This document shows positions 5,599 to 49,245 of a stretch of DNA of 64,000 nt, in pieces (positions within the stretch are counted from its first letter, which is position 1; every line of letters starts with the position of its first letter). The translations under genes were made by a program, and so were the position numbers. This DNA comes from Candidatus Nomurabacteria bacterium GW2011_GWE2_34_25 (lineage in GTDB: Bacteria; Patescibacteriota; Minisyncoccia; Phycocordibacterales; UBA9973), in NCBI GenBank assembly GCA_000990325.1, contig LBPS01000008.1, positions 97 to 64,096 on the forward strand, read 5' to 3'. Below the pieces are notes generated by a model. The model did no database searches, was not told the origin of the DNA, and saw only the letters and a program-made list of their open reading frames with translations.

Positions 5599-7269
5599 AT
5601 GCAAAGCGAAACAAAAAATTGCCAGAATTGCAAAAAAGACTTCACTATAGAGTCGGATGATTTTTTGTTTTACGAGAAAATAAAAGTCCCTCCTCCAACA
5701 TGGTGTCCTGATTGTAGACAGCAAAGACGGTATGCATGGAGAAATGAAAGAACTCTTTATAGAAGAGATTGTAATTTGTGTGGCAAGAGTACAGTTACAA
5801 TTTATTCACCAAATAAAGATTTAAAAGTTTATTGTTTGAAATGTTGGTGGGGAGATGGTTGGGATCCATCATCTTATGGTAAGGATTTTGATTTTTCTCG
5901 ACCCTTTTTTGAACAGTATAAGGAGTTACAAAAAATAGTTCCAAGAATGGCTGTTTTGAGTAAAAATACAATTAATTCAGAATATACCAATCATTGTCGA
6001 GACAACAAGAATGTTTATCTTACTTTTACTTGTACTGATAGTGAAGATATTTCATATTCAACATGGATAATGAAATCAAGAAATTGTATGGATTGTAGTT
6101 ATATTTATGAAGGAGGAGAAAGACTATATGAGTGTATAGATTCACGCAAGGTATATCATTGTCAATATGGAATTCTTTTAGAGAATTGTGTTGATTGCTA
6201 TTATTGTTACGATTGTCATAATTGTAATGATTGTTTCATGTCTTCAAATTTAAGGAATAAAAGTTTTGTTTTTAAAAATCAACAATATTCTCGTGAAGCA
6301 TATTTAGAAAAAATATCTGAATATAATTTAAATTCATATCTAAATCGTGAAAAATTATATAAAGAATTTCTTGATTTTATGGTCTTTAATTCTATCCATC
6401 GTTATGTTATAAGTGAACGTAATGTAAATTCCATTGGCAATATGTTGTTTAACAGTAAAAATGCAATTAATTGTTTTGATTCTGAAGTTATTGAAGATGT
6501 GAAAAATGCATATGCAGTTTTAGTCTTAAAAAATTCAATGGATTTATATCATATTGGATGGAATACAGAATTAGCTTATGAAGATCATGGGTGTACCAAG
6601 ATCTATAATTGTCAGTTTTGTCATCTTTGCTATGATGATTCTCACTTAATATATTGTGATTCTTGCCAAAATAGTCAAAATCTTTTTGGTTGTATTTCGA
6701 TCAAGAAAGGAGAATATATGATTTTAAATAAGAAATACTCAAAAGAAGAATATTTAGAGTTAAAAGAAAAGATAATAGAACATATGAAAAAAATAGGTGA
6801 ATATGGAGAATTTTTTCCACCATCCATTTCCCCAGTTTGTTATAATGAAACGCAAGGTAATTATTATATGCCAGAAACTAAGGAAGAGATTTTATCTCGT
6901 GGTTGGCTTTGGGAAGATAAGATACCAGGTATTTTTGGTAAAGAAACAATTCAACCAGAAGATATTCCAGATAGTATAAAAGATGTAGATAACTCTATTT
7001 CAAAAGAGATATTAAAATGTATTTCTTGTACAAAAAATTATAATATTGTACCAGATGAATTGACTTTTTATCGTCGAGAAGAGATTCCTATTCCAAGAAA
7101 TTGTCCAGAATGTAGATATAAAAAGAGATTTAATTTGCGATTACCTCGTAAGCTCTGGCGTCGTTCCTGTATGAAGGAAGGCTGTAATAACGAATTTGAA
7201 ACTTCATATGCACCAGAGAGGCTTGAGATAGTGTATTGTGAGCAGTGTTATCAACAGGAAGTGTATTAG
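5599..7269 (+). CDS. Cys-rich repeat protein with N- and C-terminal tandem zinc ribbons (paralog 1 of 4)
   Basis: 556 aa. The N-terminus reads CQNCKKDFTI...FYEKIKVPPPTWCPDCR...RDCNLCG...VYCLKCW. The C-terminus reads CISCTKNYNI...FYRREEIPIPRNCPECR...RSCMKEGCNNEFETSYAPERLEIVYCEQCYQQEVY. Internal repeats follow the pattern NCxDCxxCxNLxNKxYxIxNKxYSKEEY. The same architecture recurs at 21768, 38663 and 46757. Confidence 0.8.
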   Translation: MQSETKNCQNCKKDFTIESDDFLFYEKIKVPPPTWCPDCRQQRRYAWRNERTLYRRDCNLCGKSTVTIYSPNKDLKVYCLKCWWGDGWDPSSYGKDFDFSRPFFEQYKELQKIVPRMAVLSKNTINSEYTNHCRDNKNVYLTFTCTDSEDISYSTWIMKSRNCMDCSYIYEGGERLYECIDSRKVYHCQYGILLENCVDCYYCYDCHNCNDCFMSSNLRNKSFVFKNQQYSREAYLEKISEYNLNSYLNREKLYKEFLDFMVFNSIHRYVISERNVNSIGNMLFNSKNAINCFDSEVIEDVKNAYAVLVLKNSMDLYHIGWNTELAYEDHGCTKIYNCQFCHLCYDDSHLIYCDSCQNSQNLFGCISIKKGEYMILNKKYSKEEYLELKEKIIEHMKKIGEYGEFFPPSISPVCYNETQGNYYMPETKEEILSRGWLWEDKIPGIFGKETIQPEDIPDSIKDVDNSISKEILKCISCTKNYNIVPDELTFYRREEIPIPRNCPECRYKKRFNLRLPRKLWRRSCMKEGCNNEFETSYAPERLEIVYCEQCYQQEVY

Positions 7270-9102: not shown

Positions 9103-10440
9103 ATGGTAAAAAAGACAAAACAAAAAACAAAAAAGGTAGTTACTAAGAAAAAGGTTATTAAAAAGCCAGTCAAAAAATTGGTTAAAAAAGTTGCACATAA
9201 AAAAATTTCTAATAAAAAGAAAGTTGTAAAAAAAACGAAACAAAAAAACAAAAAAACAGTTACAAAGAAAAAAGTTGTAAAAAAGCCAGTAAAGAAAGTG
9301 GTAAAGAAAACTGTCCCTAAAAAAATATCACCTAAAAGTTTTTCTAAAAAAGAGGCGCTAGAGAAGAGGCAGAAGGACGAAGAAACCAGGGCCGTTCTAA
9401 TGATAGAAAAGGGAAAGAAGAGAGGATTTGTGACTTATGATGAGATTATCAAAGAATTTCCAGATATAGAAACAAACATTTTATTTTTAGATGATTTATA
9501 TGATCGTTTTGCTGTTGCTGGGATTGATGTACTTGAGGGGGGTAATTTGCTTGATACAAGTGGCGACATGGAGAAACTTGCTTTGAAATATAGTAAAGAT
9601 GCTAAGACTTATGATTCGATCCAAATGTATTTAAAAGAGATAGGTCAGTATCCACTGATTGCTGCTGGTGAAGAAAGGGAGCTAGCGAAAAGAATTGAGA
9701 AAGGAGATATAGAAGCCAAGAATTTACTTGCTCGTGCAAATCTTCGCCTTGTTGTTTCCATTGCTAAAAAGTATGTAGGACGAAGTTCAGATCTTACTTT
9801 ACTTGATCTTATTCAAGAAGGGAATCTAGGTTTGTTCAAAGCTGTTGAGAAATTTGACTGGACAAAGGGTTATAAATTCTCAACTTATGCTACATGGTGG
9901 ATTCGTCAGTCTATTACTCGTGCCCTAGCCGACCAGTCTCGTACTATTCGTATTCCTGTTCACATGGTAGAGACAATTTCTAAATACAAGCAGGTAGTCA
10001 GACGTTTGTCTCAAGATTTAGGTCGTGAACCTCTCGTAGAGGAGATAGCCACAGAGATGAATTTGGAAGTTGAGAAGATTCATATAATAGAACAGATCAA
10101 CCAAGAGACTGTATCACTTGAGCAACCAATAGGGGACGATGATGAGAAGTCCACACGAGGTGAATTTATACCAGATGACAAGATTCTTCGACCAGACCAA
10201 GATTCTTCACGCAGAATTCTTTCTGACCAGATAAGAGAAGTACTTGAGACTTTGAGTCCAAAGGAGAGGAAGATTCTAGAGCTTCGCTATGGGCTTATGG
10301 ACGGTGTACAGCATACGCTTGAAGAGGTAGGACAAGAGTTCGGTGTTACTCGTGAACGTATTCGTCAGATCGAAGCTAAGGTTCATGAAAAGCTTCGTAA
10401 TAATGAAAAAATCGCAAGATTAAAGAATTACTTTGATTAA
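9103..10440 (+). CDS. rpoD: RNA polymerase sigma-70 (primary sigma factor) with a lysine-rich N-terminal extension
   Basis: Region 2 ([28 protein letters not shown]) and region 4 ([18 protein letters not shown]) motifs. The N-terminal ~85 aa are an H1-like K-rich tandem repeat. Confidence 0.93.
9106..9340 (+). repeat. Tandem direct repeat (~2 x 120 bp) encoding the K-rich N-terminal extension of RpoD
   Basis: The peptide [29 protein letters not shown] is repeated as [29 protein letters not shown]. The DNA repeats are near-identical. Confidence 0.7.
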
Positions 10441-10503: not shown

Positions 10504-11268
10504 TTATAAATTATCTGTTGGTTCTACATCATCGGCTGTTTTCATAAGCCCAAAGACTAAATCAATATATTTCCAGAAAGCATTATTATCTTTTAGTTTA
10601 GCCACACATTCAGATGCGGCTGCTTTTTGAAGAGCATATTGACCCTTGCTTGTATTTACATGAACTGGCCAGTGACGATAAATCCAAGCAACCTTACCAT
10701 TTGATTCCGCTACTATCTTTTTTGCGGTCACACTAAATGCTTTACAATAAGGGCATTCAAGATCTGAATACTCTATAATAGTAACTAAGGCATCTAAATT
10801 ACCAATAATATGATCTTTTTCATTTGGTAATGGAATTTCCCCTTTATAATTTGAAATAGCTGTACCGGCTAACATGTTATCTATGGTTGTTTTAACTCCT
10901 TTTTGTTTTTCTGTAACGTCAGGAATATTATAATCATCATATGGAATATTGCCTAGCAGTTCCATTTTTGTTCCATCTTTGCCCACAAGTACAATATATG
11001 GAGTTCCTCTTTGTAGGGCAGGTATATCTTTCATTACAATATCTGCACTAGTTGCGGTTGAACTATATAAATCTTCCAGATTAGTATCTTTCATACAAGA
11101 ATCCATAGCTTCTTTTTTAACTCCAACTTGTTCTGATAAAGTTTTTTCTTTTTCTATCTTATTTCCTACTCCACTACTATTAGTTACTAAAATTGCTATC
11201 ATAATGAGCACTCCTGCAACTATAATAGCTGTAGGTGTATTAATACTTTGTTTTTTTTCGTTTTCCAT
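10504..11268 (-). CDS. DsbA-family thiol:disulfide oxidoreductase (thioredoxin fold) with N-terminal membrane anchor
   Basis: CPYC active-site motif (SDLECPYCKAF), an N-terminal hydrophobic segment, and a thioredoxin-like C-terminal region. Confidence 0.75.
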   Translation of the reverse strand: MENEKKQSINTPTAIIVAGVLIMIAILVTNSSGVGNKIEKEKTLSEQVGVKKEAMDSCMKDTNLEDLYSSTATSADIVMKDIPALQRGTPYIVLVGKDGTKMELLGNIPYDDYNIPDVTEKQKGVKTTIDNMLAGTAISNYKGEIPLPNEKDHIIGNLDALVTIIEYSDLECPYCKAFSVTAKKIVAESNGKVAWIYRHWPVHVNTSKGQYALQKAAASECVAKLKDNNAFWKYIDLVFGLMKTADDVEPTDNL

Positions 11269-21689: not shown

Positions 21690-21707
21690 ACATTGTATAA
21701 TTATAAG

Positions 21708-21735
21708 TATTCTACAATTCTATAGAATTGTAGAA
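21708..21735. promoter_or_regulatory. 28-bp perfect palindrome ATTCTACAATTCTATAGAATTGTAGAAT (candidate operator) upstream of paralog 2
   Basis: Exactly self-complementary, and 33 bp upstream of the start at 21768. Near-identical palindromes occur at 23493 and 48432, with a half-site at 23789. Confidence 0.7.
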
Positions 21736-21767
21736 TAGATTAATCTTAGATAATATTAATTAAATAT

Positions 21768-23465
21768 ATGCAAAGTGAAATTAAAATTTGTCAAAACTGT
21801 AAAAATGATTTCACTATAGATCCTGAGGATTTTTTATTTTATGAGAAAATAAAAGTTCCTCCACCAACCTTTTGTCCACATTGTCGGTTTGTACGACGAT
21901 TAATATGGAAAAACGAACGGTCTTTATATAAAAGAAAATGTGATATGTGCCAAGAAAGTATTATTTCAATGTATAATGAAAAAGTAGCTTTTTATGTATA
22001 TTGTTCTTCTTGTTACAAAAGTGATAAATGGGAAGCAGGAGAATATGCGCAAAACTATGATTTTAGTAAAGCATTTTTTACACAATGGAAAGAATTGTTT
22101 AATAAAGTTTCAAGGCAGTCACTATGGCAATTTGGTGATTGTATAGATTCAGAATATGCTAATTTTGTATATTTTTCTAAAAATGTATATTTAAGTAGTT
22201 CTATTATAGACGGGTCCGAAGATGTATATTTTTCAAATAACGTTGATGGATCAAAACAAGTAATAGATTCATTTAATGTATTAAAGAGCGAATTAATTTA
22301 TCAAAATATCAGTGGAAATAAAAATTATAATTGTCAATACTCATATTGGTCAACTGGATGTATAGATTGTAATTTCATACTTGATTGTAATAATTGCCAA
22401 GATTGTTTTGGTTGTGTAAATTTACAAAATAAAAGATATTGTATTTGGAATATTCAATATACAAAAGAACAGTATGAAGAGAAGATGAAAGAATTAAATA
22501 CAGGCAAGCACTCTTTTGTTGAAGAGTTTTCAAAAATATTTTGGGAATTTACATTAGAATTTCCAAGGAAACATGCAAGAATTATTAATTCTATTGATTC
22601 TACTGGTGATGAGCTTAGAAATAATAAAAATACCTCAAGTTCTTTTAATGTTTATGATTCTGAAAATCTTAAATATACATACAGATGTGTTCACGCAAAA
22701 GATTCCATGGATATTTGTCATTCATATGCAGAGCACGCGTATGAGCATGCTTTTGCTGGTGCTGAGAACAGTCAGAACATTAAATTTGTTATTACAGGAG
22801 AAGTTGCTTTAAGCATGGTTGAGTATTTAGATGCCTGTAAATCTTCCTCTAATCTCTTCGGTTGCATAGGTCTCAAAAACAAACAGTATTGTATTTTAAA
22901 TAAGCAATATACAAAAGAAGAATACGAAGAAATGATACCAAAAATTAAACAACATATGGATGAAATGCCGTATATAGATAGTAAGGGCAGGGTATATAAG
23001 TATGGAGAATTCTTTCCTTATGAACTATGTCCATTTGGATACAACGAAGCTGTTATAAATGATCATTTTCCATTAACCAAAGAAGAAACAATAGAAAGGG
23101 GATATCCATACAAAGAAAAGATAGATAACAAATATACAATTACTTTAAAAGCCAAAGATATACCAGATGATATAAAAGATGTAGACGATTCTATACTAAA
23201 TGAAGTTATAGAGTGTGAAGCATCAGGTAAAGCATTTAAAATAACTCCATTTGAACTTCAATTTTACAAACGTATGAATATTCCCATCCCTAGACTTCAT
23301 CCAGATGAAAGATACAAGAAACGCTTAGCTCTGAGGAATCCGATGACTCTATATACTCGCACTTGTATGAATGAAGGTTGCACAAATACATTTGAGACTA
23401 CCTATGCTCCAAATAGGCCAGAGATAGTATATTGTAAAGAATGTTACCAGAGGGAAGTGTATTAG
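21768..23465 (+). CDS. Cys-rich repeat protein with terminal tandem zinc ribbons (paralog 2 of 4)
   Basis: 565 aa. N-terminal CQNCKNDFTI...FYEKIKVPPPTFCPHCR, C-terminal RTCMNEGCTNTFETTYAPNRPEIVYCKECYQREVY, and internal NCNNCQDCFGCVNLQNKRYCIWNIQYTKEQYEE repeats. Confidence 0.8.
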   Translation: MQSEIKICQNCKNDFTIDPEDFLFYEKIKVPPPTFCPHCRFVRRLIWKNERSLYKRKCDMCQESIISMYNEKVAFYVYCSSCYKSDKWEAGEYAQNYDFSKAFFTQWKELFNKVSRQSLWQFGDCIDSEYANFVYFSKNVYLSSSIIDGSEDVYFSNNVDGSKQVIDSFNVLKSELIYQNISGNKNYNCQYSYWSTGCIDCNFILDCNNCQDCFGCVNLQNKRYCIWNIQYTKEQYEEKMKELNTGKHSFVEEFSKIFWEFTLEFPRKHARIINSIDSTGDELRNNKNTSSSFNVYDSENLKYTYRCVHAKDSMDICHSYAEHAYEHAFAGAENSQNIKFVITGEVALSMVEYLDACKSSSNLFGCIGLKNKQYCILNKQYTKEEYEEMIPKIKQHMDEMPYIDSKGRVYKYGEFFPYELCPFGYNEAVINDHFPLTKEETIERGYPYKEKIDNKYTITLKAKDIPDDIKDVDDSILNEVIECEASGKAFKITPFELQFYKRMNIPIPRLHPDERYKKRLALRNPMTLYTRTCMNEGCTNTFETTYAPNRPEIVYCKECYQREVY

Positions 23466-23492
23466 TAGTTTATTTTATATTATAAATAGTAT

Positions 23493-23520
23493 TCTATAAT
23501 TCTATAGAATTATAGAATAG
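23493..23520. promoter_or_regulatory. 28-bp perfect palindrome ATTCTATAATTCTATAGAATTATAGAAT, 12 bp upstream of the ArsR-like gene
   Basis: Perfectly self-complementary. It shares the TTCTATAGAA core with 21708 and 48432. Confidence 0.7.
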
Positions 23521-23531
23521 AAATAAATATT

Positions 23532-23804
23532 ATGAGAAAAACAAATAGAGAATTAGAAAGAATAGTTAAAGGGTTTGCAAATCACAGAAGAATTGAAATA
23601 TTATTCCTACTAGATAAGAATCCAGATTTGTCTGTTCTTGCGATTTCTGATAGATTGAAGTCTGATTTTAAAAATATTTCAGCTCATATAAGTAAAATGT
23701 ATATTGCGGGACTTTTAGTTAAAAGAAGTATGGGGAATACAGTTTGTCATAAACTTACGAAGCGTGGTAAATCTATTCTACAATTCGTTAGAATTATAGA
23801 ATAG
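23532..23804 (+). CDS. ArsR/SmtB-family winged-helix transcriptional regulator
   Basis: 90 aa containing ANHRRIEILFLL...LSVLAISDRL...NISAHISKMYIAGLL, the ArsR HTH signature. Confidence 0.7.
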   Translation: MRKTNRELERIVKGFANHRRIEILFLLDKNPDLSVLAISDRLKSDFKNISAHISKMYIAGLLVKRSMGNTVCHKLTKRGKSILQFVRIIE

Positions 23805-23806
23805 AT
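23789..23806. promoter_or_regulatory. Half-site copy (GAATTATAGAATAG) of the palindromic motif, upstream of tgt
   Basis: Matches the right arm of the 28-bp palindrome. It lies about 30 bp upstream of the tgt start. Confidence 0.4.
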
Positions 23807-23833: not shown

Positions 23834-25079
23834 ATGAAAGCGATTGATTTTAAAATAGAAAAAAAGTTGGAAGGATTTTTAGGTAGAGCAGGGACTCTGA
23901 CTACACCTCATGGAGTTATAGAGACTCCATCTTTTGTCGTTGTGGGGACGAAGGGGACAGTCAAAGCTATGACTCCCGAACAGCTCAAGGAGATAGGTGT
24001 GCAAGTTACACTTGCCAATACTTACCATCTTTATTTACAACCAGGAAGTGATTTAGTACGTGAGGCAGGAGGCTTACATAAGTTTATGAATTGGCAGGGG
24101 CCCATGATGACAGACTCTGGTGGATTCCAAGTATTTTCTCTTGGTGTGGCTTACGGCAAAGAGCTTTCCAAAGTTGTTTCTGTAAAGGCTTGCAACCATA
24201 GGGAACGACGGAGTTTCTTTCCGATCACACTTAGATGGATCGCTTCATTATATAACTCCAGAGAAGTCTATCGAGATTCAGCACAACTTAGGAGCCGATA
24301 TTATATTTGCTTTTGATGAATGTACCTCGCCGACAGAAAGTGAACGCTATCAAGATGAAGCATTGTCTCGCACTCACTCTTGGGCCAAGAGGAGTTTGGA
24401 GGAGCATAAGAAACGGGAGGAAGCAAAGCAAGAATATGCGAATTCTTCACGCTTTACCCTAGAGGGGCCCTACGCTGATAAGAATTTTCATATTCCTATT
24501 TCGCCTTGGCCCCAGGCTCTCTTTGGCATTGTCCAAGGAGGACGTAGTGAAGAGCTTAGGAAGAAGTCTGCTAAAGTTATAGGAGAAATGGACTTCGATG
24601 GTTTTGGGATTGGTGGATCTTTTGCCAAAGAGGATATGTCGACTGCTGTAAAGTGGGTCAATGAAGTGCTCCCAGAAGACAAACCTCGCCATTTACTAGG
24701 TATCGGTGAACCGGAAGATCTTTTCTCTGGAGTAGAAAACGGGGTTGATCTTTTTGATTGTGTGGCACCCACTCGTATTGCTCGCAACGGAACGATGTTT
24801 ACAAAGAACGGCAAGATAAATATTTTGAATGCTAAGTTTGTAAAAGATTTTAATCCGATAGACGAAGGGTGCAAGTGTAATACTTGTACAAATTATACTC
24901 GTGCATATCTTTCACACCTCTTTCGTGCTAAAGAAATGCTAGGAGCAACTTTGGCTTCTATTCACAATGTCTACTTTATAACCAATCTAGTAAAACAAAT
25001 GCGCGATGCTATACTAAATGATACGTTTCAAGATTTTAAAAATGAATTTTTAAAAAATTATGACAGACAAAGTATTTAA
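23834..25079 (+). pseudogene. tgt: Queuine tRNA-ribosyltransferase interrupted by a +1 frameshift near 24180 (pseudogene or sequence error)
   Basis: Frame 2 encodes the N-terminal TGT part up to [11 protein letters not shown]. After a TAA at 24183, frame 3 continues with [21 protein letters not shown]...DECTSP... and the C-terminal Zn site CKCNTCTNYTRAYLSHL. The two pieces align end to end with canonical Tgt. Confidence 0.85.
24440..24491 (+). repeat. In-frame palindromic insertion element inside tgt (encodes NSSRFTLEGPYADKNFH)
   Basis: gaattcttcacgctttaccctagaggggccctacgctgataagaattttcat is about 80% identical to a segment inside uvrA at 28637-28690. It is absent from canonical Tgt at this position. 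Confidence 0.65.
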
Positions 25080-37129: not shown

Positions 37130-38623
37130 ATGGCACTAAATAAACCAAACAAAATCCAGATTATTAAGTATGCTCCACCACCACCAGATCTTCCAACTTT
37201 AGGTAGGGTAGATCCGAGTGATGTGACCTTTATCGGCCGTACGAATTATGTAGCTTCTTTAGAAGAAAAGAAGTTCGTTTTCGGATTCAAGCGTATTGAT
37301 CGTCGCCGTCATTTATACATTATTGGAAAGTCTGGCGTTGGTAAGTCAAAGCTTCAAGAATTGATGATTCGTCAAGATATAGCTTACGGACATGGTGTCT
37401 GTATTATTGATCCTCACGGAGAGCTTATAGAAGACATCTTGAATTTTATTCCAGAGGAGCGTATTGAAGATGTCTGTATTATTGATCCAGGAGATATAGA
37501 GTTCCCATCTTCATTTAATCCACTTGCAAATATTGATCCAACGTTCAAGCATCAACTAACCCAAGGATTGATCGAAGTTCTCCGTAAGCAATTCGGTGCC
37601 AACTGGACTCCACGTTTGGAGCACGTTTTCCGTTTTACAGTCCTAGCTCTTCTCGATTATCCGTTTGCAACAATGCGTGGGATGATTAGTATGCTTACTG
37701 ACAGAAATTATCGTCAGAAAGTAGTTGAATATATCGAAGACGACATGGTCAAACGCTTCTGGGCAATAGAATTCGCGGACTGGTCTGAGAAGTTCGATAC
37801 GGATGCCATCATCCCTTTGGTGAACAAGCTTGGGCAATTTCTTTCTGACCCAATGCTTCGAAATATTTTCGGACAAAAAGAAAACAAAATAGACCTCGAA
37901 GAAATAATGAACGGACAAAAGATTCTCTTAATCAATCTTTCCAAAGGTAAGATTGGGGAAGAGAATTCATCATTCTTCGGAGCCATGTTCCTAACGAAGA
38001 TTAAGCAAGCGGGTATGGCTCGTGCCAAGCTTGAGCCGAAAGATCGTGCGGACTTTTACTTATATGTCGATGAGTTCCAGAACATTGTTACAGATACTTT
38101 TGAAAACATTCTTTCCGAAGCTCGTAAGTACGGATTGAACCTTATTGTTGCCCACCAGTACGTCGCTCAGCTTTTACCTAAAGTTCAGCAAGCAGTTTTA
38201 GGAAATGTGGGATCTATTATTACCTTCCGTGTGGGAGGAGATGATGCGACGAAGCTCAAGCCAGAGTTTGCTCCAGTTTTCGACGTGAAAGATATGATCA
38301 ACTTAGGAGTGGGGGAATTCTATGTCAAAATGACGATAGATGGAGAGAGTTATGATCCATTTTCTGGAGAAACTTTACAAGTACTCCCCGCTACTCATCC
38401 GTCTTATAGACAAAGAATCATAGAAGCTTCTCGTCGTAAGTACTCCATACCAGCAGGTGATGCACAGAGGCTCATTGCCGAAGAAGAAGCTACTATCATC
38501 CGCAGCGCCCAAGAGAAAGCTGCTATTACAGGAAATAAAAAAGAAGAAAAAGACGAAGACGCCAATGACAATAAAAAAGAAGAAATAAAGAAAGAAGAAA
38601 AAGGAGGGGAACCATTAATATAA
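37130..38623 (+). CDS. Soluble TraD/TrwB/VirD4 (T4SS coupling protein)-like P-loop ATPase, paralog 1
   Basis: Walker A HLYIIGKSGVGKSKL, Walker B-like FYLYVDEFQNIVTD, the RKYGLNLIVAHQYVAQL motif, and no TM helices. It is paralogous to 42952-45225 and has a charged KE-rich C-terminus. Confidence 0.75.
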   Translation: MALNKPNKIQIIKYAPPPPDLPTLGRVDPSDVTFIGRTNYVASLEEKKFVFGFKRIDRRRHLYIIGKSGVGKSKLQELMIRQDIAYGHGVCIIDPHGELIEDILNFIPEERIEDVCIIDPGDIEFPSSFNPLANIDPTFKHQLTQGLIEVLRKQFGANWTPRLEHVFRFTVLALLDYPFATMRGMISMLTDRNYRQKVVEYIEDDMVKRFWAIEFADWSEKFDTDAIIPLVNKLGQFLSDPMLRNIFGQKENKIDLEEIMNGQKILLINLSKGKIGEENSSFFGAMFLTKIKQAGMARAKLEPKDRADFYLYVDEFQNIVTDTFENILSEARKYGLNLIVAHQYVAQLLPKVQQAVLGNVGSIITFRVGGDDATKLKPEFAPVFDVKDMINLGVGEFYVKMTIDGESYDPFSGETLQVLPATHPSYRQRIIEASRRKYSIPAGDAQRLIAEEEATIIRSAQEKAAITGNKKEEKDEDANDNKKEEIKKEEKGGEPLI

Positions 38624-38662: not shown

Positions 38663-40306
38663 ATGAAAAAGATTTGTGAACATTGCCAGAAAGAATTCAT
38701 TATTACTGATATAGAGAAATCTTTAAGTGAAAAGATTGGACTAGAATTATCTACCGTCTGTTCAAGGTGTCTTTTAAAACAGCAGTTGTCTTTTTGGTTA
38801 TTTGGTAAATTTCGTAAAAGTAAATCTGATTTATCAGGTGAGAGTTTTATAACTGTATTACCAGAAAGTCGTTATCCACTTTACTCACTAAAGGAATGGT
38901 ATAGTGATGCTTGGGATGCGATGGATTACGGAGCGAAATACAATCCAAGTGAATCATTTTTTAAACAACTACAATCTCTTCAAGAGAAAGTTCCTCACCC
39001 TCATCAAAATGGAATTAATAATACAGGATGTGATTATTGTGATGATGTTTGGAGTTGCAAGAATTGTTATTTAGCTCGATCTATGGTTGATTGTGAAGAT
39101 CTTTTATATTCTTACCGAAACATTAAGGTTAAAAATTCTATAGATGTAGCTATATGCTTTAGTTCCGAGAGATGTTTTTGTTCTCTTAATTGTATGAATT
39201 CATATAAACTTTTCTATTCTAGAGATTCAAAAGATTGCATAGATTCATATTTTCTTTTTGATTGTCGCAACTGCCAGAATTGCTTCATGTGCTGTAATTT
39301 AAGAGGGAAGAGTTATTGTATAGAGAATGTACAGTATACAAAAGAAGAATACAATGAAAAACTAAAAGATTTTAATTTAGGTTCATATTCTCAAATTAAA
39401 CTGTTTAAAGAACATTTTGAAGAAATGCTTAAAAATGTAGCAATCCATAGATTAAATTTTAATCTTAAAACTTATAATTCTACTGGTAACAATTTATTAA
39501 ATGTAAATAATTGTATAAATTGTAATACTATTTCTGATTCAGAAGATTGTGTTAATTGTACAAGAGGTACTAAAACCAAATCCTCTTTAAATTATGCTGG
39601 ATGTTTTGAAGGAGAGTTGCTAGGTAGTTGTAGTGGTTGTGTGAATGCATATAATTTGAAATATTCTTCTTGGTCTTCGTCAAGATATTCTGAATATTTG
39701 GATTTGTGTATTGACTGTGAATATTGTTTTGGCTGTGTGGGGCTTAAGAAGAAAAAGTATTGTATTTTAAACAAGCAATACACCAAAGAAGAGTATGAAA
39801 AATTAAAAGATGAAATTATAAATAAAATGAAAGAAGACGGAGAGTATGGCAAGTTCTTACCTTACTCTATGAGTCCAGGACCATTCAATTTCTCAACTAG
39901 TTATTTATATTTCCCCAATACGACCAAGGAAGAAATTTTGAAATTGGGTGGTTATTGGCAAGACATAGATGAAAGCAATATAGAGGGTATGTCCACAAGT
40001 GAATTGCCTGACTCTATAGATGATGTGGATGAAAGTATTTGTACCAAAGCATTGATTTGTCCTCTGACTGGTTGGCGTTTCAATATTTCCAACAATGAAT
40101 TAGGATTTTATAAACAGTACAATATTCCACTTCCTCGTAAGCATTTTGATGTAAGAATAAAAGATCTGTTGAAATATTCAACTGTACTAGAAACAACTCC
40201 ATATAATTGTTATTATTGCAAAAACAAAATAGAAGCTTTTTATCCGAGTGAATGGGGGTACAAGAATATTGCTTGCGAAAGTTGTTATCAACAGAATTTA
40301 AACTAA
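38663..40306 (+). CDS. Cys-rich repeat protein with terminal zinc ribbons (paralog 3 of 4, more divergent)
   Basis: 547 aa. N-terminal CEHCQKEFII...VCSRCL, internal CRNCQNCFMCCNLRGKSYCIENVQYTKEEYNEKL and CEYCFGCVGLKKKKYCILNKQYTKEEYEKL repeats, and a C-terminal ...NIACESCYQQNLN. It starts 40 bp after the ATPase at 37130. Confidence 0.75.
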   Translation: MKKICEHCQKEFIITDIEKSLSEKIGLELSTVCSRCLLKQQLSFWLFGKFRKSKSDLSGESFITVLPESRYPLYSLKEWYSDAWDAMDYGAKYNPSESFFKQLQSLQEKVPHPHQNGINNTGCDYCDDVWSCKNCYLARSMVDCEDLLYSYRNIKVKNSIDVAICFSSERCFCSLNCMNSYKLFYSRDSKDCIDSYFLFDCRNCQNCFMCCNLRGKSYCIENVQYTKEEYNEKLKDFNLGSYSQIKLFKEHFEEMLKNVAIHRLNFNLKTYNSTGNNLLNVNNCINCNTISDSEDCVNCTRGTKTKSSLNYAGCFEGELLGSCSGCVNAYNLKYSSWSSSRYSEYLDLCIDCEYCFGCVGLKKKKYCILNKQYTKEEYEKLKDEIINKMKEDGEYGKFLPYSMSPGPFNFSTSYLYFPNTTKEEILKLGGYWQDIDESNIEGMSTSELPDSIDDVDESICTKALICPLTGWRFNISNNELGFYKQYNIPLPRKHFDVRIKDLLKYSTVLETTPYNCYYCKNKIEAFYPSEWGYKNIACESCYQQNLN

Positions 40307-40424: not shown

Positions 40425-41285
40425 ATGAGACAATTAAAGATTACAAAATCGATCACAATGCGCGAGAGCGCTTCCCTGGACAAGTATTTACAAGAGATTG
40501 AGAAAGAAGAACTTGTAACTCTTGAGGAAGAAGTGGAGTTAGCCCAGCGGATAAAAAAGGGTGATCGGGTAGCACTGGAGAAACTTACAAGAGCAAACTT
40601 GCGTTTCGTAGTTTCTGTAGCTAAACAGTACCAGAATCAGGGATTAAGTTTACCCGACCTTATCAATGAAGGTAATCTGGGATTGATTAAAGCCGCCGAG
40701 AAGTTTGATGAAACCAGAGGGTTCAAATTTATTTCCTATGCTGTATGGTGGATTCGTCAATCCATTTTGCAGGCATTGGCCGAGCAATCCAGAATTGTGC
40801 GGTTGCCTTTGAATCAACTTGGTTCGTTGAACAAAATCAACAAGGCATTTTCCAAACTGGAACAGGAGTATGAACGAAAGCCGACACCCGATGAGCTTGC
40901 CGAATCATTAGATCTCCCTGCCGACAAAGTGGCTGATACCCTTCGTATTTCAGGCCGTCATATTTCTTTTAATGCTCCTTTTGTTGAAGGAGAAGATAAC
41001 AGTTTGTTGGATGTTTTAATCAACAACGATTCGCCAAATGCTGACAGAGGTTTAATGATGGAGTCATTGGCCAGAGAAATTAAACGAGCTTTGGCAACTT
41101 TAACTGAACGGGAAAGCGATATTATTCGGTTCTTCTTCGGAATTGGCTGCCAGGCAATGACCCTTGAAGAAATTGGTGAACGTTTTGGACTAACCCGGGA
41201 ACGTGTACGTCAGATGAAGGAAAAAGCAATTCGCCGGTTAAGACACAGCTCAAGAAGTAAATTATTAAAAACATATCTCGGATAA
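40425..41285 (+). CDS. Compact 286-aa primary-type sigma-70 factor lacking region 1.1 (Bacteroidetes sigma-A-like)
   Basis: [11 protein letters not shown]... N-terminus, region 2 ([27 protein letters not shown]) and region 4 ([20 protein letters not shown]). The length and N-terminus match what I recall of the unusual Bacteroidetes primary sigma. The gene is visibly more G+C-rich than its neighbours. Confidence 0.8.
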
Positions 41286-42951: not shown

Positions 42952-45225
42952 ATGGAAAATGAAATTCCACACAATCGTGACATAACATACTTTGCTAAGA
43001 CGAATTTTCGTAATAGTGACAATATTTTCGGTATTAAGCGTAAGGATCGTCGTCAGCATATGTACATTCTCGGAAAGTCAGGTACTGGTAAGTCTGTTTT
43101 ACTCTCAAATCTAATTGTTCAAAATATCCAAAATGGTGAAGGTGTTTGTGTTGTCGATCCTCACGGAGAGCTTGTCGAAGAAGTCCTGCATCTTATCCCA
43201 GAACACAGAAAGAAAGATGTTATTTATTTCAATCCTGCCGATACTGAATTCCACATAGGGTTCAACGTCATCCAGCTCGATGATCCAAAGTACAAGCACT
43301 TGGTAGCTTCAGGACTCATGGGTATCTTCACGAAGATTTGGGCCAATGCTTGGAGTTCTCGTATGGAGTACATTTTGAACAATGCGATTCTAGCCCTGCT
43401 CGACACCCCAGGTACGACTCTTCTCGGTATTCCACGTCTCTTAGTCGACAAAGATTATCGTCAAATGATCATTGGTAATTTAAAAGATCCAGTTGTGAAA
43501 GCTTTCTGGGTTCACGAGTACGAGCAGTGGCGTGAGCAGTTCAGAAATGAAGCCATCGCGCCGATTCAGAACAAGGTTGGGCAATTCCTCTCCACTTCGA
43601 TTATTCGTAATGTTGTCGGTCAGCCGAAGTCAACGATAGATATTTTCAAAATAATGAACGAAGGCAAGATCTTCCTTGTCAATGTTTCCAAGGGGCGTAT
43701 CGGTGAGGACAATTCAGCTTTGCTTGGAGGTATGATTATTACCAAGATCCAGCTTGCCGCCATGGAGCGTGTGCGTATTCCCGAGGACGAACGTAAAGAT
43801 TTCTATTTATATGTCGACGAATTTCAAAACTTTGCGACTGATTCATTTGCGAACATTCTCTCAGAAGCTCGTAAGTATCGTTTGAATCTGACAGTTGCTC
43901 ACCAGTACACTGCTCAACTTGAGAACAAAGATGGATCGAAGGTTCGTGATGCTGTCTTCGGTAACGTCGGAACCATGATTATTTTCCGTGTTGGTGCGGA
44001 CGACGCAGATTTTCTTGAAAAAGAATTTGAGCCAGAATTCATGGCTCAAGACTTAGTAAACTTACCGAACTTTCACGTTTATCTAAAGCTTATGATAGAT
44101 GGTATTACTAGTCGTCCCTTTTCTGCTTCGACTCTTCCTCCCCTTAAAGTTGATCCGACTTCAGGTGTGAAAGATGCAATCATAGCTTCTTCTCGTAAGC
44201 TTTACACTCGCTCTCGTCAAGAAGTTGAAGATGAAATCTCCAGATGGAGTGGAATGCTTCAAGTGGGTGATGGAGAAGCAAAGTACAAGGCTGACTGTTC
44301 TAATTGTGGCAAGGTTACAATGGTTCCTTTTGAACCTCAGGAAGGCAGACCTGTTTATTGTAAAGAATGTATGTTCAAGATAAAGAGTGGCGAGCTCAAG
44401 CCCGATAGTGGTTTTATTGCTTCTCGTTCTTCTCGCCAAGAAGAGAAAGTTTCAACTGCACCTTTGGCTGCTTTAGGTATAGAATTTGCTGTGACTGATA
44501 CAAACTTTAGAGTTTCAAAGAATCAAGAGCAGACGAATCCGAAAATACCAGAAAGAATTGACAGAAATATTAATACAAATAATAATACCAATAACAATCA
44601 TTACAATAATCATCAGTCGGATACAAATAGGAATCATTTTGTGAAAAATGAAAGGAAGCATTCAGGACCCTCACCACTTTTGAAAGGGTTATTGCAAAAG
44701 ATTGGTATGGGTAATAATAAAGGAGAAGCATCTTCTGTCCCCGAAGCAACAGAAATTAAAAAAGAAGTTCCAGCTCCTATATCTCTCTCTTCACTTAAGA
44801 AAGACACGATAAAAGATGTGAGGAAAGAATTCGTAGCCCCTGTCAAAGAAGCGACAGAGGAAAAGAAAGCATCACTTAAAGACTTGCTTGCAAAGACCGT
44901 AAATCATCATCACGAAGAGCATATTGTCGAAGTCGCCTCGAGGGCGGCAGTCAGAGAAGGCGGGAAGGAAGAGGAAGTTCCTGAAGTTAAAGAAGTAATT
45001 CCTGAAAAGAAAATTGAAATAATAGAAACAAAACCTGAAGTTAAAGAAGAAATATTTATACCTAAAGTAGAGGAAGTCCCTGTAGCACCTCCTTCTGTAC
45101 CATTGCCTCCTAAAAAAGAAGAGATAAAATCGGGTGGAGATGATATTGCGGATTCTCTTGCTTGGCAGAAACGTCAAGTGAAGAAGGAAGTTCCAGAAGA
45201 TGTGCTCCGTAAAGTCTTAGAATAA
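42952..45225 (+). CDS. Soluble TraD/VirD4-like P-loop ATPase, paralog 2, with C-terminal zinc ribbon and long low-complexity tail
   Basis: Walker A HMYILGKSGTGKSVL, FYLYVDEFQNFATD, and RKYRLNLTVAHQYTAQL. A C-terminal CSNCGKVTMVPFEPQEGRPVYCKECMF zinc ribbon is followed by N-rich and KE/P-rich low-complexity sequence. Confidence 0.75.
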   Translation: MENEIPHNRDITYFAKTNFRNSDNIFGIKRKDRRQHMYILGKSGTGKSVLLSNLIVQNIQNGEGVCVVDPHGELVEEVLHLIPEHRKKDVIYFNPADTEFHIGFNVIQLDDPKYKHLVASGLMGIFTKIWANAWSSRMEYILNNAILALLDTPGTTLLGIPRLLVDKDYRQMIIGNLKDPVVKAFWVHEYEQWREQFRNEAIAPIQNKVGQFLSTSIIRNVVGQPKSTIDIFKIMNEGKIFLVNVSKGRIGEDNSALLGGMIITKIQLAAMERVRIPEDERKDFYLYVDEFQNFATDSFANILSEARKYRLNLTVAHQYTAQLENKDGSKVRDAVFGNVGTMIIFRVGADDADFLEKEFEPEFMAQDLVNLPNFHVYLKLMIDGITSRPFSASTLPPLKVDPTSGVKDAIIASSRKLYTRSRQEVEDEISRWSGMLQVGDGEAKYKADCSNCGKVTMVPFEPQEGRPVYCKECMFKIKSGELKPDSGFIASRSSRQEEKVSTAPLAALGIEFAVTDTNFRVSKNQEQTNPKIPERIDRNINTNNNTNNNHYNNHQSDTNRNHFVKNERKHSGPSPLLKGLLQKIGMGNNKGEASSVPEATEIKKEVPAPISLSSLKKDTIKDVRKEFVAPVKEATEEKKASLKDLLAKTVNHHHEEHIVEVASRAAVREGGKEEEVPEVKEVIPEKKIEIIETKPEVKEEIFIPKVEEVPVAPPSVPLPPKKEEIKSGGDDIADSLAWQKRQVKKEVPEDVLRKVLE

Positions 45226-46756: not shown

Positions 46757-48421
46757 ATGGAAACAAAGACTTGTCAAAACTGTAAAAATGACTTCATAAT
46801 TGAGCCAGATGACTTTTCTTTCTATGAGAAAATGAAAGTTCCTGTACCTAAAATTTGTCCAGATTGTCGCTTTAAAATGAGGGCAATGTGGAGAAATGAG
46901 ATGAGTATGTATTCAGGACGAAAGTGCGGTTTATGTGGCAAAAGTGTATTATCTATTTACAATCTCAAATCCCCATTTACAACATATTGTTATGAATGTT
47001 TTTATTCTGAAAAATGGAGTCCCAAAGATTATGCAACTCTATACGATAAGTCACGACCATTCTTTGATCAAATGGGGGAGTTTTTAATTAAAGTTCCTAA
47101 GATAAATTTAGGTATTTCTACTGGAGATGGACCAAATATAAATAGTGAATATGTGAATATGGCTGGAGGATGCAAGAATTGTTATCTTGTTTTTAATACA
47201 AGTCCTGCTGAAGAATTACTTTATTCTAGGGGTGTAAAGAGTGGTATTTTTTCTTCTGACATTTATTTTGGAGTGAAGTTTGAGAACTGTTACGATTGCG
47301 TGAGTATTCAAGAATCAGCCAATGTTTTCTGGGGACAAAACATTATGGGCTGTGTAGATTCCTATTTTATTTTAAATGGTAGTGGTCTCACGAATTGTTT
47401 TGGCTGTGTTAATTTAAGGAATAAAAGTAATTGTTGGTTTAATGAGCAATTAACTTCCGAAGAATATAAAACAAGATTGGGTGAAGTTATGGGTAGCTAT
47501 TCAAAAATATTAGAAGCTCGCAAGAAATTTGAAGAATTTTGTTTACAGCATCCACATAAAGAGAACAATAATTTAAAAACGATAAATTCTGTGGGGGACT
47601 ACTTAACTGAATGCAAAAATGTTGTAAATTCTTTTGAAGTGGCAAAATCAGAAGATTGTCGTTATATTTTTTCATCTAAAATGATTAAGGATTCTTTGGG
47701 AACAACTGGATTTGGGACAAAATCTGAAAGATTACTTGAAGTTGTTGCGACTGGACATTCTAGTAATATTATAGGTTCTTATTGGGCGGAAAATTGTAGT
47801 AATGTAATGTATTCTTTTGATTTGAGAAATTGCCATGATTGTATAGGGTGTGACGCTCTAAAGAATGGTAAATATGCCATTTTTAACAAAGAATATTCAA
47901 AGGAAGAATACGAGGAATTAAAGGCTCATATTGTTAAAGAGCTTACAGAACAGGGGATACATGGGCTCATGATGCCAGTAATTATCGCTCCATTTGCATA
48001 CAATGAAACAATTGCTCAAGATAATTTCTCACTAACCAAAGAGGAAGCATTGGCCCAAGGCTATAGGTGGGAAGATGATATACAGATGACTAAGGGCAAG
48101 GATACAATACAGCTAGATGACATAGAAGATAATATCAAAGATATTAGAGATTCTATAACAAGTGAAATATTGAAATGCATCTCTTGCGAAAGGAATTATA
48201 AGATTACGGAGCAAGAGCTACTTTTTTACAGAAAAATGGTCCTACCTATTCCTCGTCAGTGTTTCTATTGTCGTCATCAGGATAGAATAAAAAGGCGAGG
48301 TCCATATAAATTCTGGGATAGGAAATGTGATCATTGTGATAAAGATATTAAAACCAATTATTCACCAGAACGTAAGGAAATAATATACTGCGAGAAGTGT
48401 TATCAGCAGGAAGTAATATAG
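46757..48421 (+). CDS. Cys-rich repeat protein with terminal tandem zinc ribbons (paralog 4 of 4)
   Basis: 554 aa. N-terminal CQNCKNDFIIEPDDFSFYEKMKVPVPKICPDCR...RKCGLCG, C-terminal CISCERNYKI...FYRKMVLPIPRQCFYCR...CDHCDKDIKTNYSPERKEIIYCEKCYQQEVI, and internal CHDCIGCDALKNGKYAIFNKEYSKEEYEEL repeats. Confidence 0.8.
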   Translation: METKTCQNCKNDFIIEPDDFSFYEKMKVPVPKICPDCRFKMRAMWRNEMSMYSGRKCGLCGKSVLSIYNLKSPFTTYCYECFYSEKWSPKDYATLYDKSRPFFDQMGEFLIKVPKINLGISTGDGPNINSEYVNMAGGCKNCYLVFNTSPAEELLYSRGVKSGIFSSDIYFGVKFENCYDCVSIQESANVFWGQNIMGCVDSYFILNGSGLTNCFGCVNLRNKSNCWFNEQLTSEEYKTRLGEVMGSYSKILEARKKFEEFCLQHPHKENNNLKTINSVGDYLTECKNVVNSFEVAKSEDCRYIFSSKMIKDSLGTTGFGTKSERLLEVVATGHSSNIIGSYWAENCSNVMYSFDLRNCHDCIGCDALKNGKYAIFNKEYSKEEYEELKAHIVKELTEQGIHGLMMPVIIAPFAYNETIAQDNFSLTKEEALAQGYRWEDDIQMTKGKDTIQLDDIEDNIKDIRDSITSEILKCISCERNYKITEQELLFYRKMVLPIPRQCFYCRHQDRIKRRGPYKFWDRKCDHCDKDIKTNYSPERKEIIYCEKCYQQEVI

Positions 48422-48431
48422 ATAATATCTG

Positions 48432-48459
48432 TTCTCTAATTCTATAGAATTGTAGAATA
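48432..48459. promoter_or_regulatory. Near-perfect palindrome TTCTCTAATTCTATAGAATTGTAGAATA, 10 bp upstream of the methyltransferase gene
   Basis: One mismatch from perfect symmetry. It belongs to the same motif family as 21708 and 23493. Confidence 0.65.
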
Positions 48460-48468
48460 AAAAATAAA

Positions 48469-49245
48469 ATGCAAAATAAAAAACAAAAAAACAAAAAGGA
48501 TACTTCATGGAATAGTGTATCGAGTTGGTACGATGAATTGTTGAAAGGGGATGATAGCTATCAAGCGAAGGTTATATTGCCGAATTTACTTCGATTTCTT
48601 GATTTGAAGAAAGGAGAAACAGTTTTTGATCTTGCTTGTGGTCAAGGGTATTTTGCCAATGTTTTTGCTCATAATGGGGCAGATGTTACGGCTTCAGATT
48701 TATCCAAGAATTTAATAGAAACTGCCAAGAAGAATTCTAAAGAAAAAGTTGTTTTCTATATATCACCTGCACATAAGGCGCAATTTTTAAAAGATAGTTC
48801 CGTTGATACTATCGTTATTGTACTTGCTACTCAAAATATTGAAAACATAAACGAAGTCTTTGTTGAATGTAAAAGGGTTCTTAAAAAGAGTGGGCGAATG
48901 GTTCTAGTTTTGAATCATCCAGCTTTTCGTATTCCACAAGGTAGTGATTGGGTTTTTGAAAGTGGAGTTCAATCTCGTATTATTAGCCAGTATCTATCGC
49001 CATCCAAAATATTTATCGATATGACTCCAGGAGAGAAAAATCCAAAGAAGAAAATTAAAACAATATCTTTCCATCGCTCACTTCAAGATTATATGAAGGT
49101 TTTTTCTAAAAGTGGCCTTGTCATCACACGTCTTGAAGAGTGGATCTCGCACAAGCAAAGCGGGTCAGGTCCTCGTCAAATAGCTGAAGATAAAGCTCGC
49201 AAAGAAATTCCTATGTTTATGTGTATAGAGATTAAAAAAATATAA
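48469..49245 (+). CDS. Class I SAM-dependent methyltransferase
   Basis: Motif I VFDLACGQGYF and a post-I acidic residue (TASDLS). Rossmann-fold MTase pattern. Confidence 0.75.
   Translation: MQNKKQKNKKDTSWNSVSSWYDELLKGDDSYQAKVILPNLLRFLDLKKGETVFDLACGQGYFANVFAHNGADVTASDLSKNLIETAKKNSKEKVVFYISPAHKAQFLKDSSVDTIVIVLATQNIENINEVFVECKRVLKKSGRMVLVLNHPAFRIPQGSDWVFESGVQSRIISQYLSPSKIFIDMTPGEKNPKKKIKTISFHRSLQDYMKVFSKSGLVITRLEEWISHKQSGSGPRQIAEDKARKEIPMFMCIEIKKI

Follow-up and report, generated by a model that had tools for sequence, protein, structure and literature searches.

A 64,000-nucleotide stretch of contig LBPS01000008.1 from Candidatus Nomurabacteria bacterium GW2011_GWE2_34_25 (this whole stretch is called the window below) carries a recurrent 28-bp palindrome, and one of its copies stands directly before a small gene of the ArsR/SmtB superfamily, which raises the question of what the element does and which protein reads it. 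The initial annotation had proposed an operator of this adjacent ArsR-like regulator. The sites themselves were confirmed, and their interpretation as an operator was supported by comparison of the sequences: the element is probably the operator of the 90-amino acid ArsR/SmtB-superfamily protein (23532-23804) and, at the same time, the core promoter of the genes that it precedes. An autoregulated operator of an ArsR-family protein is of a known kind; what is unusual here is that the element is built from -10-like hexamers and that a second operator copy is frozen in the stop-proximal codons of the regulator gene.

The window was searched with the 28-mer ATTCTAYAATTCTATAGAATTRTAGAAT, allowing up to 3 mismatches, and exactly 4 matches were found, with 0.00 expected from 100 dinucleotide-preserving shuffles; half-site and single-unit searches recovered no additional full or half copies elsewhere in the 64 kb. 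Because the core TTCTATAGAA alone, with 1 mismatch allowed, was at chance level (8 found, 7.5 expected), significance was assigned to the full 28-mer. The putative operator copies and the gene of the proposed trans-acting factor were located as follows.

21709..21736, + strand: operator copy 1 (site 1), ATTCTACAATTCTATAGAATTGTAGAAT, 0 mismatches, perfect 28-bp palindrome
23491..23518, + strand: operator copy 2 (site 2), ATTCTATAATTCTATAGAATTATAGAAT, 0 mismatches, perfect palindrome, putative autoregulatory site
23775..23802, + strand: operator copy 3 (site 3), ATTCTACAATTCGTTAGAATTATAGAAT, full 28 bp with 2 central mismatches
48431..48458, + strand: operator copy 4 (site 4), GTTCTCTAATTCTATAGAATTGTAGAAT, 2 mismatches to the consensus, in the distal arm
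23532..23804, + strand: ArsR/SmtB-superfamily winged-helix gene, 90 amino acids, proposed trans-acting factor

Each of the four sites occupies or borders a short spacer that separates two genes of the same strand. Site 1 lies 19 nucleotides (nt) after the MreC stop codon and 31 nt before the ATG (21768) of a gene for a cysteine-rich (Cys-rich) protein, paralog 2, and a sigma-70-like sequence (TTGTAA-17-TATAAT) ends just upstream of it at 21701. Site 2 lies 25 nt after the paralog 2 stop codon and 13 nt before the ArsR-like ATG (23532), and site 4 lies 9 nt after the stop codon of Cys-rich paralog 4 and 10 nt before the ATG (48469) of a methyltransferase gene. Site 3 is within the ArsR-like open reading frame (ORF), where it codes for the last nine residues, ILQFVRIIE, its final T starting the stop codon TAG; it ends 31 nt before the tgt ATG. 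The initial annotation had recognized sites 1 and 2 as perfect palindromes, as they are, and had placed them at 21708-21735, 33 bp upstream of paralog 2, and at 23493-23520, 12 bp upstream of the ArsR-like gene, positions and distances that are replaced by those given here. Its copy 10 bp upstream of the methyltransferase gene, after paralog 4, was retained with two mismatches in place of one and with coordinates moved from 48432-48459 to 48431-48458, and what it had described as a half-site upstream of tgt (23789-23806) turned out to be the full 28-bp copy within the ArsR-like coding sequence.

For analysis of conservation, 80 ArsR-like loci from metagenomes were picked by protein alignment alone, blind to the motif. 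An upstream copy with at most 6 mismatches in 24 positions preceded every evaluable ArsR-like gene (76/76), 64 of these copies having at most 3 mismatches and 55 of the 76 having their end 6-9 nt from the ATG; the intragenic copy at the 3' end was present in all 80 protein-selected loci. Four distant homologs, likewise picked by protein, stand in another gene context (GatB-aldolase-ArsR-FAD oxidase/L25), and in all four of them one copy stops 9 nt short of the ATG and another lies within the last nine codons. A dyad-symmetric site that lies over the regulator's own putative promoter and is conserved across orthologs in differing contexts has the arrangement of an autoregulated operator, and the autoregulation that had been predicted from the window is supported in this motif-blind sample.

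The intragenic copy was analysed at the codon level in 10 diverse orthologs. Codons 82-90 were ATT CTA CAA TTC GTT AGA ATT ATA GAA in all of them, with one codon used at each position, whereas in codons 2-81 two to five codons were used at 54 of 57 positions with a conserved residue and a degenerate code (Fisher p = 5.9e-9); this difference in codon usage shows that the intragenic copy is under selection at the DNA level. The CGTT centre of this copy is imposed by the coding of Phe-Val, while the consensus TATA centre would give Phe-Tyr. The gene that follows the regulator varies between loci (tgt in the window, elsewhere S51 peptidase, FAD oxidase, L25, Cys-rich, NUDIX and others) and the intragenic site is constant. 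Intragenic auxiliary operators are known from lacO2 in lacZ and galOI in galE, which are looping partners. The present site resembles them in that an operator would lie in coding sequence and be subject to coding and protein-binding constraints together; it differs in that it occupies the regulator's own last nine codons as the putative promoter-operator of the next gene, and in that it is kept in every ortholog examined, whatever gene follows. At one locus (L013:10290-10335) the intragenic operator is followed by a long inverted repeat, GTAATTCTATCAAAATGCTCGAGCGTTTTGATAGAATTAC, with arms AATTCTAT...ATAGAATT and a 20-nt centre, possibly a terminator or else a variant binding site.

The phyletic range of the motif was determined with the exact 20-mer ATTCTATAGAATTRTAGAAT in one genome per species for 185,579 species. 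It was found at 92 loci, ~82 of which were in Nomurabacteria, Paceibacterota or Patescibacteria metagenome-assembled genomes (MAGs), several genomes having 4-6 copies. The regulator family covers the same clade as the motif: its members are nearly always 90 amino acids long and, across many Paceibacteria, 59-100% identical, and the identical protein is encoded on contigs of Candidatus Nomurabacteria (GW2011_GWF2_35-type, GCA_000990275.1, Rifle groundwater). At genome scale the motif is thus almost confined to the clade that has the regulator, with a handful to perhaps a couple of dozen copies per genome, which fits a regulon and not a generic repeat.

Outside the Candidate Phyla Radiation (CPR), 5 of ~10 loci were from Chloroflexi (Anaerolineae/Chloroflexota MAGs L029, L031, L039, L040 and L071). 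Their element, ATTCTA-TA-ATTCTA-TAGAAT-AC-TGGAAT, stands 2-6 nt before a gene for a 221-amino acid ArsR(HTH_5/HTH_20)-rhodanese protein and occurs in at least 2 copies per MAG; in the DNA-binding (helix-turn-helix) domain, this protein and that of the CPR share 31% identity. DNA specificity may be shared between the two, or regulator and operator may have been transferred horizontally together. In Moraxella lacunata, two copies of ATTCTATAATTCTATAGAATTATATTAAATTCTATAGAATTTTTATAG (L036:3821 and L059:2747) were found at a distance of ~1 kb on one chromosome, each followed after 43 nt by an identical ORF of 101 amino acids that has no Pfam match; this element shares the core and is probably unrelated.

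Targets were counted at 112 CPR sites with at most 4 mismatches. A gene start was present within 45 nt at 80 of the sites (68 with a gene end and a gene start on either side, 12 with a start only), 13 had a gene end only, 12 had neither within 45 nt, and 7 lay between convergent genes. The sites are thus mostly promoter-proximal, as had been proposed from the window. Among these motif-selected sites the commonest target was the Cys-rich family, with 33/112 sites at -2 to 35 nt before its genes; 12-13/112 preceded an ArsR-like gene, 13/112 were intragenic copies and ~35/112 preceded other genes. The latter code for DHFR (4 cases), FAD-linked oxidase (4, as the gene after ArsR), class I aminoacyl-tRNA synthetases (3), methionine aminopeptidase, histidine phosphatase, ABC transporter and S51 peptidase (2 each), and single cases include DHODH, riboflavin synthase, 6PGD, NUDIX and an UvrA-like protein; there were no sulfide-metabolism genes among the targets listed. 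The predicted regulon of the initial annotation is supported for the Cys-rich family, while tgt and the methyltransferase would be lineage-specific and not conserved targets. The sites between convergent genes (L048:3534, L086:5273, L033:1753, L057:5185, L062:5713, L063:2839 and L104:5116) are 3-20 nt from both stop codons, and at L048 and L086 one of the flanking genes is Cys-rich. At one orphan site (L030:2276-2319) the perfect palindrome extends over 44 bp, AAATAACAATTCTACAATTCTATAGAATTGTAGAATTGTTATTT; it is flanked by two terminator-like hairpins, no ORF starts close to it, and a second perfect 28-mer lies 1.8 kb off in the same locus (L030:442). Convergent and orphan sites may have persisted as relics, act as roadblocks or be the promoters of small genes that escaped annotation.

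The anatomy of the element was derived from 76 non-redundant sites oriented by the downstream gene. It is built from one hexamer that occurs four times, in two direct and two inverted repeats (ATTCTA-NN-ATTCTA-TAGAAT-NN-TAGAAT). All four hexamers were conserved, the arm that was left unconstrained by the search pattern being kept at 70-75 of the 76 sites, and the element reached outward to a T at position 0 and an A at position 29. The spacers varied, and their mirrored positions were complementary at 11/76 sites (positions 7/22) and 30/76 sites (positions 8/21). This pattern fits a protein that reads double-stranded DNA, and not a conserved stem.

In the direction of the gene, the hexamer reads TAGAAT, which resembles a -10 box (TAnAAT). 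The distance from the motif end to the ATG peaked at 8-9 nt (26/76) and at -2 (11/76), where the ATG overlaps the motif as TAGAATG; the TAGAAT whose end is nearest to the ATG is the outer hexamer in the 8-9 nt class and the inner hexamer, at 6 nt, in the -2 class. Among the 57 genes of the window, 6 had a Shine-Dalgarno (SD)-like sequence, and in 14 a TAnAAT hexamer ended 4-12 nt upstream of the start, most often at 6 nt (2.1 ± 1.4 for random positions). These promoters often read TGATATAAT-N6-ATG, for example at 10504-11268(-), 31971, 50026, 50639 and 53092, which suggests that leaderless mRNAs are widespread in this Nomurabacteria genome. With its hexamers at the -10 position of leaderless-type promoters, the element is therefore inferred to be promoter and operator in one; its location in promoter regions, as annotated initially, was borne out, and the site would not be merely near a promoter but also be one. 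In the leaderless promoters of Actinobacteria, Deinococcus and archaea the -10 box is placed ~6-7 nt before the AUG. The present promoters are like these in geometry only, with TAnAAT 6-10 nt before the start and no SD sequence; they are unlike them in that the -10 hexamer occurs four times in a dyad and apparently doubles as the recognition element of a repressor.

In the mechanism that we propose, TAGAAT takes the place that TATAAT boxes have elsewhere in this mostly SD-less genome, 6-10 nt upstream of the start codon, which would give leaderless or nearly leaderless transcripts, and one or two regulator dimers bound to the element would mask both the -10 region and the start of transcription, thereby blocking RNA polymerase. 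Site 2 would confer negative autoregulation, site 1 co-regulation of Cys-rich genes and site 4 that of lineage-specific genes such as the methyltransferase, while site 3 would be the promoter-operator of the gene after the regulator, here tgt. Because a leaderless gene needs its promoter directly before the ATG, the promoter-operator of this next gene would have to lie in the regulator's last nine codons. If the protein does bind, the position of the sites inclines us towards repression. Interdigitated dyads (hexamers 1+3 and 2+4, centres 14 bp apart) and nested dyads are both possible arrangements of the dimers.

A promoter without a dedicated repressor is an unlikely explanation of the same geometry. 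TAGAAT would then be a -10 box read by RNA polymerase, maybe with a sigma-70 paralog of the window, and the palindrome would represent bidirectional or duplicated -10 boxes; the hexamer does fit TAnAAT at the typical -10 position of this genome, and two sigma-70 family genes are present in the window, so that the ArsR-like protein, which the initial annotation had taken for the only regulator in the neighbourhood, is not the sole transcription protein there. Yet the distal and the proximal arm are equally conserved although most sites are flanked by a gene on a single side, the G at hexamer position 3 is nearly invariant whereas the other promoters of the window have TATAAT, and 7 sites lie between convergent genes. 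The pairing of the element with the ArsR-like gene (76/76), the frozen synonymous sites and the Chloroflexi ArsR-rhodanese case would also be left unexplained.

The ArsR-like protein was compared with protein families and structures. It matched Pfam HTH_5 just over the cut-off (22.2 bits, cut-off 22.0) and NCBIfam HTH_metalloreg under it (37.4 bits, cut-off 55); a profile of 20 homologs matched HlyU best among Protein Data Bank (PDB) entries (3.4e-8), followed by CadC (5e-5), with CzrA, PagR and NolR also found. The AlphaFold2 (AF2) model (pLDDT 86.5) had the canonical topology a1-a2-a3-a4-b1-b2-a5, with helices at residues 5-14, 18-29, 35-42, 46-58 and 77-85 and strands at 62-67 and 70-75. 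The top PDB match of the model in Foldseek was SqrR (6o8k, TM 0.77), HlyU, CadC, CzrA and SmtB being at 0.7-0.77, and the top 36 were all ArsR-family chains except ZitR (MarR family) and AspA (a plasmid centromere-binding protein). As modelled, the protein has the ArsR/SmtB winged helix-turn-helix fold with a C-terminal helix. The alignment contained no alpha3N Cys and no alpha5 Asp/His/His/Glu ligand set (a5 is RGKSILQFVRIIE), and no conserved cysteine or persulfide-sensing Cys pair, the sole cysteine, C72, being Arg in most homologs. Because a conserved cysteine and an a5 metal-ligand set are both missing from the alignment, the protein is not recognizable as a metal or persulfide sensor. 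The invariant residues H18, H52 and H73 appear, judged by eye without a SqrR alignment, to be at positions equivalent to DNA contacts of SqrR (bioRxiv 10.64898/2026.05.15.721447).

Members of the SqrR/BigR/YgaV/HlyU branch are homodimeric winged-helix repressors; their operators have two-fold symmetry and lie over the site at which RNA polymerase recognizes the repressor's own operon, as in the case of YgaV (PMC9774250). The half-sites of the branch are ATTC and GAAT, and the SqrR box is ATTC-N8-GAAT (bioRxiv 10.64898/2026.05.15.721447; PMC9774250). The present system is like this branch in that its members are the best structural matches to the model and HlyU the best PDB profile match, and in that the ATTC/GAAT tetranucleotides are the core of the hexamers. 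It is unlike it in that the gaps between ATTC and GAAT are N4, N12 and N20, never N8, with four hexamers in place of two half-sites, in that the protein is without the persulfide-sensing cysteine pair of SqrR/BigR, and in that no sulfide-metabolism targets were seen, although the Chloroflexi relatives do have a rhodanese domain.

SmtB, CzrA and CadC have the same fold, and control of Cys-rich proteins, as predicted here, would be akin to the repression of the metallothionein gene smtA by SmtB. Their genes are autoregulated, and their 12-2-12 operators are long imperfect palindromes of 26 bp (28 bp for the present element) that can take two dimers. The operator sequence found here is unrelated to theirs, the ArsR-like protein is without the metal-ligand set and under the HTH_metalloreg cut-off, and the predicted targets are not metallothioneins but multi-zinc-ribbon proteins of 550-590 amino acids with 5-7% Cys.

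That the element is a true operator of another DNA-binding protein, with the ArsR-like gene as a conserved target and not the regulator, is very unlikely. The ArsR-like protein is connected to the site by sequence comparison, and variants of helix and operator do not correspond one to one, both of which leave room for another binder. A universal site on the gene's own promoter is nevertheless the classic signature of an autoregulated factor, an unrelated phylum (Chloroflexi) pairs the same motif with another ArsR-family gene, and half-sites of the ATTC/GAAT type have been described for the ArsR branch that is closest in structure (PMC9774250). In addition, the orthologs of group D pair a different recognition helix (KTASEH...) with ATTCCA/TGGAAT outer hexamers; beyond group D, no simple link between a recognition-helix residue and an operator base was found.

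The two copies that flank the regulator were compared with each other at each locus. Upstream and intragenic copies of the same locus were identical at 23.25 of 26 positions, whereas shuffled pairings gave 21.51 ± 0.21, and the identity of own pairs was attained by 0/10,000 shuffles. Lineage-specific centres were present in both copies (CTGCAG at L180, CTTAAG at L178 and L181), and the 'MLE' lineage (...FVRMLE) had G at position 9 and GT at 21-22 in both. Third sites with the variants of their genome were found at L159:2535, before a 125-amino acid gene whose N-terminus was judged RidA-like by eye only, without a family-library scan, and at L184:5014, before a Cys-rich gene; variants shared by third sites argue for a common trans-acting reader and not only for local gene conversion. 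Sites with a CGTT centre were also found outside any ArsR ORF, at L184:5014 (7 nt before the Cys-rich gene), L149:1562 and L123:1650, which suggests that the 3' end of the regulator gene may have been copied as a ready-made promoter-operator.

Concerted evolution of the two copies, the constant bracketing of the ArsR-like gene and frequent bracketing of Cys-rich genes by two copies, the differing neighbourhoods of the regulator, the copied 3' ends suggested by CGTT-centre sites and the length of 28 bp would also suit a site of recombination or mobility, with an 11-6-11 geometry like that of Xer/dif, pdif modules or cassette boundaries and with the ArsR-like and Cys-rich genes as cassettes. Sites of the dif type occur once per chromosome, and their consensus is unlike the 28-bp element. 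Here, the 64 kb contain four copies and genomes elsewhere at least 5-6 each, the copies keep a fixed distance from the start codon, one 'repeat' of the pair is coding sequence, housekeeping genes (DHFR, class I aminoacyl-tRNA synthetases, methionine aminopeptidase) are preceded by sites as well, and neither the Pfam matches of those window ORFs that were scanned nor the genes listed for the loci include a recombinase. A dif/Xer site or cassette boundary was rejected as the main explanation on these grounds and is given little credence.

A nucleic-acid hairpin (a terminator, an RNA-stability or attenuator stem, or a cruciform after stop codons like that of repetitive extragenic palindromes) was rejected as the least probable explanation: although the perfect palindromes of the window fold at -10.4 to -12.3 kcal/mol (z = -5 to -6), a simple terminator scan flags site 1 on both strands, the stop codon of the preceding gene is usually 3-5 nt before the motif, and 12 sites are within 45 nt of Cys-rich gene 3' ends and 7 between convergent genes, the mirrored spacers are mostly non-complementary next to invariant hexamers, the commonest variant, ATTCTAATATTCTATAGAATTATAGAAT, folds poorly and forms no stem (-4.8 kcal/mol, z = -1.5), 3 of the 13 pairs in the stem are G-C and no T-run or U-tract comes after it, Rfam has no match for the element, and the fixed gap of 6-9 nt to the next ATG together with the -2 overlap class indicates a function at the start site.

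Several points weigh against the reading of the element as promoter and operator of the ArsR-like protein. No solved ArsR-DNA complex matches the spacing of the hexamers, whose centres are 6, 8, 14 or 22 bp apart (12 bp in the SqrR box). Covariation between the copies is confounded by shared ancestry, and the likeness of the flanking copies may partly be due to gene conversion between direct repeats 280 bp apart. There is no clean code from recognition helix to base, as the operators of group B differ from those of group A and the helix KNISAHINKM is the same. Within the window the element is upstream of only one of the four Cys-rich paralogs. Target loci were ascertained by the motif, so that the target frequencies are not regulon proportions, and the 7 convergent and 12 orphan sites have no obvious job as operator-promoters. 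The motif promoters are without the -35 box and the TGn extension of the genome's other promoters, and because of this their intrinsic strength, and hence repression versus activation, is uncertain.

The genes of the window that are connected with the sites are listed below; those near sites 1-3 have the order MreB, MreC, Cys-rich paralog 2, ArsR-like gene, tgt, UvrB, UvrA.

5599-7269, 21768-23465, 38663-40306 and 46757-48421: four Cys-rich paralogs
21768..23465, + strand: Cys-rich paralog 2, 565 amino acids, 28 Cys, predicted target with site 1 upstream
46757..48421, + strand: Cys-rich paralog 4, 554 amino acids, 31 Cys, element 9 nt after the stop codon and none upstream
23834..25079, + strand: tgt (queuine tRNA-ribosyltransferase), follows the intragenic operator
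48469..49245, + strand: class I S-adenosylmethionine-dependent methyltransferase, 258 amino acids, predicted lineage-specific target

The four Cys-rich paralogs have 547-565 amino acids, 28-38 Cys and 33-44% mutual identity. Their family comprises at least 7159 homologs, all annotated as hypothetical, and had no Pfam or NCBIfam match. An N-terminal double zinc ribbon of ~86 amino acids recurs at the C-terminus, and at element-preceded genes the N-terminus reads MxSETKxCQNCK. The AF2 model of paralog 2 (pLDDT 77) had beta-solenoid-like middle regions of low confidence and no PDB fold match in Foldseek. The tgt gene of the window is broken into ORFs of 160 and 238 amino acids by a 53-bp deletion after 24184, and an intact TGT of 432 amino acids is encoded on otherwise identical contigs of the same population (L001 and others); the split gene is either a strain variant (pseudogene) or an assembly artefact. 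The two sigma-70 family paralogs (9103-10440 and 40425-41285) are 40% identical, one being ~120 nt downstream of Cys-rich paralog 3 and the other one gene (~1.8 kb) beyond paralog 1, and two TrwB/TraG-like coupling-protein paralogs (37130-38623 and 42952-45225) are 48% identical. The blocks Cys-rich...sigma and TrwB-like...Cys-rich, each present in duplicate, may go back to a segmental duplication.

A zinc- or metal-sensing regulon was considered because of the Cys-rich zinc-ribbon proteins, tgt, the class I aminoacyl-tRNA synthetases and the UvrA-like protein, by analogy with SmtB-SmtA. It was rejected and remains speculation: the protein has no metal-ligand set, and other targets (DHFR, FAD oxidase, NUDIX, the RidA-like gene and a 212-220-amino acid protein, DUF218-like by eye) are unrelated.

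Tentatively, and with less than even confidence, the regulator gene with its two operators could be seen as a self-contained portable module, in which the site itself is a promoter and the protein the master regulator of the Cys-rich family of Paceibacteria. If so, any gene landing downstream of the regulator would automatically join the regulon, copies of the 3' segment (CGTT centre) would have spread to other genes, and the regulator would be among the few transcription factors kept by these reduced genomes.

The regulatory networks of the CPR are essentially unknown, and nothing relevant was found in the literature on the motif, the regulon of this regulator, CPR regulons or CPR leaderless promoters. 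The analysis offers a concrete predicted pair, a 90-amino acid protein and a 28-bp site, and with it a first handle on the Cys-rich family, whose members have neither annotation nor structural relative. It also points to promoters placed directly on the start codons in these genomes, which would imply leaderless mRNAs, and to a case of dual coding, in which the C-terminus of a protein and a putative DNA operator are written on the same 27 nt with synonymous sites frozen across the 10 diverse orthologs compared.

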